NCBI RefSeq assembly: GCF_054482525.1
Contig: NZ_JBTHVG010000006.1
Length of the DNA stretch: 36,373 bases
Strand: one strand, 5' to 3'
Origin: a plasmid
Shown: one piece after another, positions 24,001 to 27,000 of the stretch
Layout: each line of letters opens with the position of its first letter
How positions within the stretch are numbered: the first letter of the stretch is position 1
Position numbers: made by a program

Positions 24001-27000
24001 TATGAGTGTTGCTGTGGGATGTTTATCGTGGTATGTCACCAGACCGAAGAACCGACAGACAAAGGCCGCGTAAGTGGCCTTTAATTGGGATACCCTTTAG
24101 TTACAACATTCTAATAGCTCATTCCATCCTCCGCTCATCCAGCAAACATAACCTCCCTGCCCCTCCCCACTACAGAAAGTGGCGCGCCCCGCCCGTACGG
24201 GCGGAATCTAATCGCTTAATTTTGAATGTTGTAACTAAACATACTCATTGCTGTATTGCCACAAGGTTTCGCAGCAAGGGAGGATACCGAAAGTAACGCT
24301 GTCACTTTTGCTTTCAAGTGACCAACCAACGGGTACATCACACTGACATACAATAATGTATTTCTTCATGATGTACATCATTGTAATTCATTGTGACATA
24401 CACTATAGTATGTCCATGTGACATACGCATGCGTACATCACATAGAAATACACATGAGTAAATCACTGTGACATACAAGGGGTACTATGATTATCGTAAT
24501 CGGTGGTGATAAAGGCGGTACAGGTAAATCACATCTGGCAACCAACTTAACTGTTTGCCTCTCACAACAGGGAAAGAGAACGGGGCTTGTTGAAACAGAC
24601 CTGAATGGCTCGACCAAAAAATGGAATAAACGCAGAGAACAGGCCGGATTACCGCCCGTCGCATTAAATGAAGCCTATGGCGACATCAGTGCCAAAATAA
24701 CAAAAATGGCAGATGTAGCAGAAATCCTCATTATAGATACTGCCGGATATGACAGCACGGAGTTCAGAACTGCACTAAAAGTTGCAGACATTGTGATTGT
24801 CCCGATCGACCCGCTTGCCCAGGTGGAAGCAGACAGTCTTCAGACTGTGACAAAAATTGTCAGGGATGCGCAAAAAATAAATCCCAGGCTGGCTGCACAT
24901 GTGCTCCTGTATAAATGCCAGCCAAATACGTTCAGTGAACAACAAGAATTAAGAGACTCTCTCAACAGCCATGATTACTGGCTTAAACCAATGAAAAGCA
25001 CGGTTTCTTTTCTCCGGGCCTTTGTAAGAGCAATGAATCAGGGAATGGGGGTTCACGAGTTAAAAAGTAATGTTAGCGGTGCCAGCCAGGCAAAAGCACA
25101 AATCGAACTCTTGCTGAAAGAACTGGAACTGTAAATCATAGTGACATACACTAATGTACATCATCATGATATACATTAGTGTGAAACAATCAGATTAGAA
25201 GGTACATCATGGCAAAGCTGGAACTACCAGAACTAGAACAAAACCAGGAAGTGAACGCCACAAAATTTGTTCAGGACGCAGGAAAACGCCCCACAGAGAA
25301 CAAAACAAAACTGGCTTCATTCCGCATACCGAATGAATTGCTTGAATTCATTGATAACGAATCAAAAAGACTGCATCGTCCCAAGACAAAAATAATCAAA
25401 GCAGCATTACTGGCTTATCAGGATCTGGACGAAAACGAACTCATTAATTTGTGGTTCAGAGCTGACAGAAATGATTAATCATAGCAAGTGGCCCAATAAA
25501 CTCTTTATCATTTTCTTTTAGATACTTATCTGAATGTACTAACTTCATCACTTTTAAATGTAGTTGTGATTCATTTTTAGTTACTCTTGCAATAAAATAC
25601 CCTTGTACAGTTGTTGCACGGGTATTTAGGAGCACTAGATGAGCCTTATCGATTTAAGTTTATCAGGATTATCAGAACCAGGAACAAAACTTATTGAAAA
25701 AATAAGTGATGCTATTGGTGTGCTTTATGAACCTACAAGAATCAGGAAAAAAGCGAAGGCTGAAGCTGAAGCTAAACGCACAGAGCTAATTTCTAGGTTA
25801 GAGCTTGAGGGAATAGAAAAACGGGCAGTTGAGCGTTTTCTCAAACGTGAAACGAAACGACAGGAAAACATTGAAAATATAACAATGCAAGCAGCACAAA
25901 GTCTATCTGAGAGTGATAATGTTTCTGATATTGACGAAGATTGGATAGAGGCTTTCTTCAGGGAGTGTGAGGATATTAGTGACGAACAAATGCAAATGCT
26001 TTGGGGAAGAATTTTATCCGAAGAAGCAAAGTCAAAAGGTTCGTTTAGTCGTAGAACCTTAAAACTATTATCCACTATAAGCAAAGAAGAAGCGAACCTT
26101 ATTACTTATTTTGGAAAGTTTGTTTGGCAGGCAAACAAACTCACTCCAATTTTATTTACCGATGAGAATGGAGATACTGAAGGTATAACTTTCGATAAAC
26201 TTTCGGTTTTAGACTCCTTAGGCGTTATTCAACAAGGCATTGGTTATAGTTTAAGATACAAATTATAAATACTCTCAAGTGTATATTCAGTATGGGATTG
26301 CGCAATGATTGCCTAATAAAATTTCTGAAATATTTCTGTATCGCATAATTTTTTATATCAGATAAATTGTACTGGATTTCTTAAAAAATTGCAGTATGAT
26401 TGCCGCAATTATCCCACCGTTTATTTTTTGAGTAGTTTCTCATGATGCAGCATACTTCTGTGTGGTACCGACGCTCGGTCAGTCCGTTTGTTCTTGTGGC
26501 GAGTGTTGCCGTTTTCTTGACCGCGACCGCCAATCTTACCTTTTTTGATAAAATCAGCCAAACCTATCCCATCGCGGACAATCTCGGCTTTGTGCTGACG
26601 ATCGCTGTCGTGCTCTTTGGCGCGATGCTACTGATCACCACGCTGTTATCATCGTATCGCTATGTGCTAAAGCCTGTGTTGATTTTGCTATTAATCATGG
26701 GCGCGGTGACCAGTTATTTTACTGACACTTATGGCACGGTCTATGATACGACCATGCTCCAAAATGCCCTACAGACCGACCAAGCCGAGACCAAGGATCT
26801 ATTAAACGCAGCGTTTATCATGCGTATCATTGGTTTGGGTGTGCTACCAAGTTTGCTTGTGGCTTTTGTTAAGGTGGATTATCCGACTTGGGGCAAGGGT
26901 TTGATGCGCCGATTGGGCTTGATCGTGGCAAGTCTTGCGCTGATTTTACTGCCTGTGGTGGCGTTCAGCAGTCATTATGCCAGTTTCTTTCGCGTGCATA

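Follow-up and report, generated by a model that had tools for sequence, protein, structure and literature searches.

A palindromic 19-bp site clustered around parA as the probable cis-acting part of a type Ib partition cassette in an mcr-1-carrying IncX4 plasmid

We analysed a 36,373-nucleotide stretch of an IncX4 plasmid (NCBI RefSeq assembly GCF_054482525.1, contig NZ_JBTHVG010000006.1; hereafter the window), in which short repeats surround parA, the gene of a small partition ATPase, and the gene that follows it, which encodes a putative ribbon-helix-helix (RHH) protein of 89 amino acids. The repeats are copies of one 19-bp dyad-symmetric site, GTAnnTCAnnnTGAnnTAC, which recurs with an exact period of 25 bp, 6 bp of spacer preceding the next site, and is confined to three clusters: upstream of parA, between parA and the RHH gene, and just after hns. 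We consider that these sites are probably the cis-acting part of a type Ib partition cassette, in which the putative RHH protein would bind the dyads, repress parA and build the partition complex. A first-pass annotation of this DNA had already proposed a ParA/RHH partition system with split binding sites. That proposal is supported by the ParF-like character of ParA, by sub-threshold RHH signals in its partner, by the conservation of the core of the site and by the linkage between motif and par module.

The array upstream of parA had been described as a two-motif array, with GTACATCA and GTGACATAC alternating three times each. Three plus-strand copies of each motif are indeed found there, in numbers far above those of shuffled sequences. 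Their order, however, is A, A, B, B, A, B (A being GTACATCA and B being GTGACATAC), which is not a strict alternation, and there are not two motifs. They are the left and right arms of a single 19-bp palindromic site, since the region resolves into one unit, with the consensus GTAnaTCannnTGAcATACAnnnnn, when it is written in a 25-nucleotide register. Positions T2, A3, T6, C7, G13, A14, T17, A18 and C19 are invariant in all ten units, and together they form the dyad GTA-N2-TCA-N3-TGA-N2-TAC. The GTACATCA copy at 24373 is not a left arm; it spans the right arm and the spacer of unit 2.

Across the 36 kb, the strict core TANNTCNNNNNGANNTA was matched 10 times (0.32 expected), and every one of these matches falls within the three clusters. 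When two mismatches are allowed, just three extra scattered matches appear, which is within chance (1.25 expected). Tandem Repeats Finder independently reported period-25 arrays at 24383-24477 and 25130-25182. Taken singly, the arms are also in excess. GTACATCA has eight exact matches in the window, compared with 0.84 expected from shuffles, none of 100 shuffles reaching eight; its plus-strand copies include those at 24333, 24373, 24433, 25156 and 25202. GTGACATAC has six matches, with 0.21 expected and no shuffle as high: five on the plus strand (24393, 24418, 24468, 25141 and 23030) and a stray copy on the minus strand at 24031.

The main array (24333-24482) is made of six tandem 25-bp units, with starts at 24333, 24358, 24383, 24408, 24433 and 24458. 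It ends just before parA, and the spacer of its last unit holds the parA Shine-Dalgarno sequence (AAGGGG). We propose this array as candidate centromere plus parA operator; sequence cannot assign the centromere and operator roles to individual clusters. The intergenic cluster (25131-25180) has two 25-bp units, at 25131 and 25156, between parA and the RHH gene. The first of them starts on the parA stop codon (G-TAA-ATCA), with the TAA inside its left arm, and a possible decayed third unit is found at 25181. The recurrence of the motifs in this interval had been noted in the first-pass annotation, and copies are present at 25141, 25156 and 25202. The distal cluster (22995-23044) starts 11 bp past the hns stop codon and again contains two 25-bp units with the 19-bp dyad; its GTGACATAC copy at 23030 bears out the recurrence described just after hns.

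Further information was obtained from relatives carrying the same site. The close set consists of the window and L006, L007 and L008 (plasmid pDETEC36), four IncX4 plasmids that are 97-98% identical over the region and 99-100% identical in ParA. Among these, 3 of 96 core columns are variable, versus 22 of 104 columns at N or spacer positions (Fisher p=8e-5). The hns-proximal cluster is retained in the IncX4 relatives, and all par units are kept in L006-L008 save one in L007, where exactly one 25-bp unit of the hns-proximal pair is deleted, a change by whole unit. In L008, which has no dqlB toxin-antitoxin module, the hns-proximal pair starts 431 bp before the start of the six-unit array. Three more distant loci, L010, L011 (GCA_030370555.1) and L012 (SRR28250962), are contigs from two metagenome assemblies and one NCBI genome assembly, in which identity is 84-89% for ParA and about 82-87% for the RHH protein. 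They have the same dyad, the same 25-bp period (with one 24-bp step) and two units right after parA, while spacers and N positions differ freely. Upstream of parA there are six units in L010 and L011 and three in L012, whose contig starts inside the array. Over 51 distinct units from seven loci, positions 2, 3, 6, 7, 13, 14, 17, 18 and 19 are conserved at 94-100%, and N and spacer positions at 33-63%, except A20 (76%). L009, a metagenome contig full of indels in which the parA and RHH genes are frameshifted, was left out of these unit statistics.

One motif copy between the two genes stands apart from the units. It had been placed over the RHH start codon, and a plus-strand copy does lie at 25202-25209, overlapping the ATG (25209) by its last base alone. 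This single half-site, GTACATCA, corresponds to a left arm and is placed between the Shine-Dalgarno sequence and the start codon of the RHH gene; it is kept in the close IncX4 relatives and is absent at that position in L010 and L011, the 84-87% relatives. Its significance is uncertain. A weak dyad-like site, GTGATTCATTTTTAGTTAC (25566-25584, two mismatches), is located in the spacer that separates the RHH and DUF2806 genes. The number of such matches outside the clusters (three, 1.25 expected) is within chance. L006 has the site as well, but the flanking region is replaced in L007 and L008, and we therefore did not count the site as part of the par system. Two of the relatives showed peculiarities in the neighbouring genes. 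An extra open reading frame of 102 amino acids without Pfam match is inserted between parA and the RHH gene of L012 (726-1166; ParA 89% identical), where it splits the intergenic region, leaving two dyad units on each side. In L011 (3001-3330) the RHH gene is split by a frameshift, which is either a pseudogene or an assembly error, and the arrays around parA are intact.

More distant par modules use other motifs. ParA homologues 38-42% identical to that of the window, each followed by an RHH-like gene, were found in L002 (IncX3), L003 (IncI2), L004 (IncX4) and L005 (IncFIA/FII). Each module has its own motif, namely TAAAGA in L002, TGTAAA in L003, AATACA in L005 and the palindrome GTGTATTAATACACAC in L004; TACACA is also among the short motifs of these modules. 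In all four, the motif is found on both sides of parA, ahead of the gene and again before the RHH gene, and in some cases downstream too. The predicted DNA-reading strand of the RHH protein differs across families as well (KLASFRIP, KLMNFRLP, KVTNVRLG, TRINLTMT, VSRTYRLN). L004 (NZ_CP134383.1, pMTY11353_IncX4) has the same Rep protein as the window and another par module (2380-3580), with a ParA of 38% identity and a tyrosine recombinase upstream. Copies of its 16-bp palindrome lie ahead of parA, in the interval between the two par genes (two copies) and beyond the RHH gene (one copy). No GTAnnTCA dyad was found anywhere in its 5.6 kb and there is no cluster after its hns, which has an ordinary GC-rich hairpin downstream. 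Since this plasmid with the same Rep lacks the dyad and the divergent modules carry motifs of their own, the sites travel with the par module and not with the replicon or with hns. Moreover, as the L004 module differs despite the same Rep, par modules have been swapped within the IncX4 group.

These comparisons also bear on the idea that the repeats are bound by another factor, such as the replication initiator (the repeats then being iterons), the plasmid H-NS/Hha proteins or a host factor. AT-rich tandem repeats on an iteron-type plasmid, with one cluster adjoining hns, would fit such a binder. However, the plasmid has its own, unrelated repeats beside rep (32019-32891, minus strand): six tandem 22-bp copies of ACCGAGGAAGCTCTCATGTTTA (33125-33256, 96% matches), presumed to be the replication iterons. 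Besides, L004 has no dyad and carries the palindrome of its own module, and in IncX3, IncI2 and IncF settings, too, the motif goes with the par module. We thus regard another binder as very improbable. The par units as replication iterons are excluded, because the 22-bp iterons are unrelated in sequence and the dyad is missing from L004.

The parA gene (24487-25134, plus strand) encodes a 215-amino-acid, small Walker-type partition ATPase of type Ib. The closest solved relative of the protein is ParF of TP228 (PDB:4dzz; E=3.4e-11, over the full length), and its deviant Walker A motif, KGGTGKS, aligns with KGGSGKT of ParF. It also matches NCBIfam ParA_partition (NF041546) from end to end (E=8.8e-33). 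In Pfam, MipZ, CbiA, AAA_31 and ParA scored above their cut-offs; these are P-loop NTPase families only, and no additional DNA-binding domain able to read an operator was found, including no N-terminal one. The small Walker-type ParA of type Ib systems is defined by a size of about 200-220 amino acids, a Walker A motif of the deviant kind and the lack of a DNA-binding domain at the N terminus, and the protein fits all three.

The partner protein would be encoded by the putative RHH gene (25209-25478, plus strand), directly downstream of parA, and is the candidate centromere-binding protein, a ParB like ParG or omega. Weak but consistent evidence indicates that it is probably an RHH protein. 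Pfam RHH_1 aligns over residues 37-70 (E=0.0023; 18.2 bits versus a cut-off of 20.5), and six of nine family members match this model. The best NCBIfam and Pfam matches include the CopG and BrnA antitoxin families, and a family profile searched against PDB found CopG in the correct register (E=0.2-0.35). The single 89-residue sequence gave nothing meaningful against PDB sequences, with no similarity to ParG or to other solved RHH ParB proteins. The AlphaFold monomer model (mean predicted local distance difference test score of 66, and 80-87 over residues 41-70) predicts an extended segment, helices at 42-55 and 59-71 and an extra C-terminal helix, that is, a strand-helix-helix arrangement at about residues 35-71. 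CopG, CdbA and Arc were the top Foldseek matches of this model, with a template-modelling score of 0.74 normalised to CopG and a weak E of about 0.4; ParG (PDB:1p94) ranked 33rd, with a probability of 0.14. One cluster member has been named 'ribbon-helix-helix domain-containing protein' by NCBI. The first 30 residues or so are predicted to be disordered, and K/R-F at positions 19-20 is conserved across divergent families. By analogy, such a tail may recall the ParA-activating tails of ParG and omega (PMC5016525, PMC9499535).

A putative sigma-70 promoter for parA (24381-24409, plus strand; TTGTAA-17 nt-TATAGT) lies inside units 2-4 of the main array. In six lineages, down to 84% ParA identity, the -35 hexamer TTGTAA and the -10 hexamer TAnAGT are at the same unit position. 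In all six, TTGTAA is composed of the end of the unit 2 spacer (TT) and the start of unit 3 (GTAATTC), and TAnAGT, 17 bp further on, of the unit 3 spacer ACTAnA and the next GT. The equivalent positions vary in the other units. We infer from this conservation that the hexamers could serve as the parA promoter. A promoter-overlapping repeat array upstream of parA is the layout of type Ib cassettes.

The position of this promoter could also mean that the sites are transcriptional operators only, the RHH protein being an autorepressor and the centromere lying elsewhere or being another sequence. RHH proteins are very often plain repressors or antitoxins, and the CopG and BrnA families are among the best matches of the 89-amino-acid protein. 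However, repression needs far fewer than the ten sites present, which form three clusters and include six in tandem, and no promoter was found at two of the clusters, those after the parA and hns stop codons. Apart from the sites, no other centromere-like repeat family was found, the other strong array being the 22-bp iterons at the origin. In known type Ib systems, in addition, the repeats that serve as operator also serve as centromere or lie next to it (PMC5016525, PMC2441792). A purely operator function is therefore improbable in our view.

According to the partition reading, which we prefer, the RHH protein would bind the 19-bp dyad, the likeliest stoichiometry being one dimer per arm, with arm centres 11 bp apart, which is one helical turn, as in operators of the Arc/CopG type. 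As one site follows another at 25-bp intervals (about 2.4 turns), protein on the six upstream units could coat the DNA in helical phase. On units 2-4 it would cover the parA promoter, and by this means the cassette would repress itself. We hypothesize that the coated array is the partition complex. In it, the disordered N-terminal tail of the RHH protein would reach ParA-ATP bound to the nucleoid and stimulate the ParA ATPase, which would move and space the plasmid copies. The intergenic and hns-proximal units would be extra loading sites of the same complex, and may be further control points, as are the parS sites of pSM19035.

Several observations weigh against this reading. Literature searches found no binding, repression or stabilisation data for the cassette. 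The RHH assignment leans on sub-threshold scores and on a monomer model of medium confidence, evidence that we consider moderate. ParA reaches 113.6 bits where the equivalog cut-off of NF041546 is 180, and is a homologue outside the curated equivalog. The promoter call rests on conservation because the consensus scan for promoters and terminators gave no more sites than shuffles (6, with 5.0 expected), which is the chance level. Upstream of the RHH gene no conserved hexamer pair was seen by eye in the intergenic region of the window and its relatives, so that any role of the intergenic cluster is tentative. In L011 no dyad match was found after hns. Finally, the two units of the distal cluster also make a perfect 14-bp inverted repeat (23000-23013 / 23020-23033), and the hns-proximal pair might be no par site but a hairpin with which the hns transcript ends. 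It is followed by no T-run, however, survives as a single unit in L007 and is built of par-type units.

The second intergenic unit deserves separate consideration. The first-pass annotation had reported a 10-bp inverted repeat at 25148-25180. This repeat is real, and it is longer than reported: arms of 17 nt (25148-25164 / 25166-25182), 94% complementary, make up a 35-bp near-perfect palindrome (25148-25182). The palindrome is centred exactly on the dyad axis of the unit at 25156 and extends this dyad into both flanking spacers. These spacers are ACTAAT/ATTAGT in the window, AATAAT/ATTATT in L011 and ATAACC/GGTTAT in L012, reverse complements each time. Complementarity is thus held in three of four lineages by three different sequences, and L010 is without the extension. 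In an alignment of five sequences, 82% of the cells pair and five pairs have compensatory changes; none of 500 shuffles reached the covariation score, and pairing dropped to 14-42% in slid registers. Spacer complementarity was found in one other unit, upstream unit 2, and there just in some of the close IncX4 plasmids. These observations suggest that pairing itself has been selected in addition to the protein site, whether it takes place in RNA (a hairpin) or in DNA (a cruciform), a lead drawn from five sequences. The compensatory upkeep of this long palindrome is the sole element that goes beyond what is expected of a type Ib cassette.

Alternatively, the palindrome might work chiefly in the RNA, where a stem-loop would fix the ParA:ParB ratio as attenuator, processing site or stabiliser, in place of or besides a role as DNA site. 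In favour of this are the three reverse-complementary spacer pairs, the five compensatory pairs with their covariation, and the restriction of this complementarity to a single unit when relatives are compared. The minimum-free-energy fold of the RNA between the two cistrons also has a 16-bp stem, directly after the parA stop codon. However, this stem is not followed by a U-tract, the fold of the whole 106-nt intercistronic segment is not exceptional (z=-1.75), and the stem has at its core the conserved protein-site consensus that the other units share. The comparison includes just five sequences, with L010 lacking the extension, and DNA-level gene conversion could maintain such a palindrome. 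Such an RNA-level role seems to us rather unlikely.

The region from 22900 to 25600 is 100% identical to pKP4823_mcr, a conjugative IncX4 plasmid, and at least 99% identical to about 300 further plasmid records. The local gene order is topB, hha, hns (22520-22984), the dqlB/AgrB type I toxin-antitoxin module, parA, the 89-amino-acid open reading frame, the DUF2806 gene and mcr-1 (26442-28067). In public records parA is labelled 'division plane positioning ATPase MipZ' and the 89-amino-acid frame 'hypothetical protein', and no centromere is annotated. The family is large, with at least 5000 records having a ParA homologue and 1826 an RHH homologue.

Other features were noted in the same DNA. 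The AgrB antisense RNA (Rfam RF02891, 58.7 bits) lies on the minus strand at 23329-23417 and, with the dqlB toxin gene, occupies about 23160-24041, between the hns-proximal par sites and the parA array; the Rfam scan of the par region itself matched no RNA family. The absence of this segment of about 880 bp from pDETEC36 marks it as an insertion between hns and parA. A GC-rich segment of 106 nt shortly before the par array is bracketed by 19-nt inverted repeats (24096-24114 / 24221-24239, 95% complementary). The whole resembles a miniature inverted-repeat element, and L008 has it too. Between the DUF2726 gene and rep, a gene for an IS91-family transposase of 399 amino acids is inserted (30347-31546; Pfam Y2_Tnp, E=1.2e-57, and Zn_Tnp_IS91, E=1.9e-21); pKP4823_mcr has no such gene annotated at that position. 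Near the end of the window there are two identical copies of a direct repeat of at least 395 bp (33899-34293 and 35979-36373), 2080 bp apart; the second copy reaches the window end, hence the lower bound on the length.

IncX4 plasmids are among the main vehicles of mcr-1, the colistin resistance gene (PMC8725589). Our literature searches found no study of an IncX4 centromere or of its binding protein, and in a paper on IncX6 plasmids ParB and parC 'could not be located' (PMC5868456). A defined site with a likely binder would provide a concrete determinant of incompatibility and stability, usable for plasmid curing. It would also explain how IncX4 backbones bearing different par modules might coexist, and the two-sided layout offers an annotation template for related plasmids. 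A wider proposal, which we find doubtful, concerns the widespread enterobacterial par family of IncX, IncI2 and some IncF plasmids, where ParA is labelled 'MipZ' and its partner 'hypothetical'. This family might have a distributed centromere bracketing parA. Its intercistronic palindrome, kept by compensatory substitutions, would be both a ParB-binding DNA site and an RNA stem-loop tuning the ParA:ParB ratio, and through the remote cluster, where the hha-hns operon ends, the RHH protein would be linked to the control of neighbouring backbone genes, as a small global regulator like omega.

The known type Ib layout comprises a small ParA, a small RHH centromere-binding protein and upstream repeats overlapping the promoter (PMC5016525). 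The ParF/ParG/parH system of TP228 has the nearest ParA, and there too a small ParA gene is followed by that of a small RHH protein with a flexible N-terminal tail, and the upstream repeats overlap the operator; in our cassette the RHH fold and the tail are predicted. In TP228 parH, however, degenerate tetramer boxes and AT-rich spacers follow one another without a break over about 100 bp, all of it upstream of the operon (PMC3130281, PMC5016525), while here 19-bp dyads are found, also between both genes and in a remote cluster. The unit structure is thus not that of parH, and the RHH protein has no sequence similarity to ParG. The par2 locus of pB171 (parC1-parA-parB-parC2), compared by its published description, is an enterobacterial type Ib system with an RHH ParB and a two-cluster centromere (PMC4270457, PMC2441792). 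Its second cluster comes after parB, so that both genes are flanked (PMC4270457), whereas in the window it lies between parA and the candidate parB. Operators of Arc and CopG are dyad-symmetric as well, with half-sites about one helical turn apart, and both proteins are among the best fold matches; these are single operators of plain repressors, though, and not tandem arrays beside a ParA gene.

The layout of the clusters is closely similar to that of the delta/omega/parS system of pSM19035 from Streptococcus pyogenes. In that plasmid delta (parA), omega (parB) and the remote gene copS each have a promoter overlapped by a heptad array to which omega binds, and each of the three arrays serves as a parS site (PMC2441792, PMC9499535). 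Both systems combine a Walker-type ParA with a centromere-binding protein that is RHH, here putatively, and has a disordered N-terminal tail, and both have clusters upstream of parA, between parA and parB and at another, remote gene. They differ in the sites themselves: pSM19035 has 7-10 contiguous, unspaced and non-palindromic heptads, WATCACW, in contrast to the 19-bp dyads with 6-bp spacers and 25-bp period described here. ATCAC occurs in several left arms, never as contiguous heptads, let alone the four or more that mark a parS of the pSM19035 type. In pSM19035 the parA and parB promoters are separate, while none was identified here for the RHH gene, and the hosts are Firmicutes there and Enterobacteriaceae here. 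In summary, the cassette brings variation that is expected and no new mechanistic principle, and it is an uncharacterised member of the well-known type Ib class.

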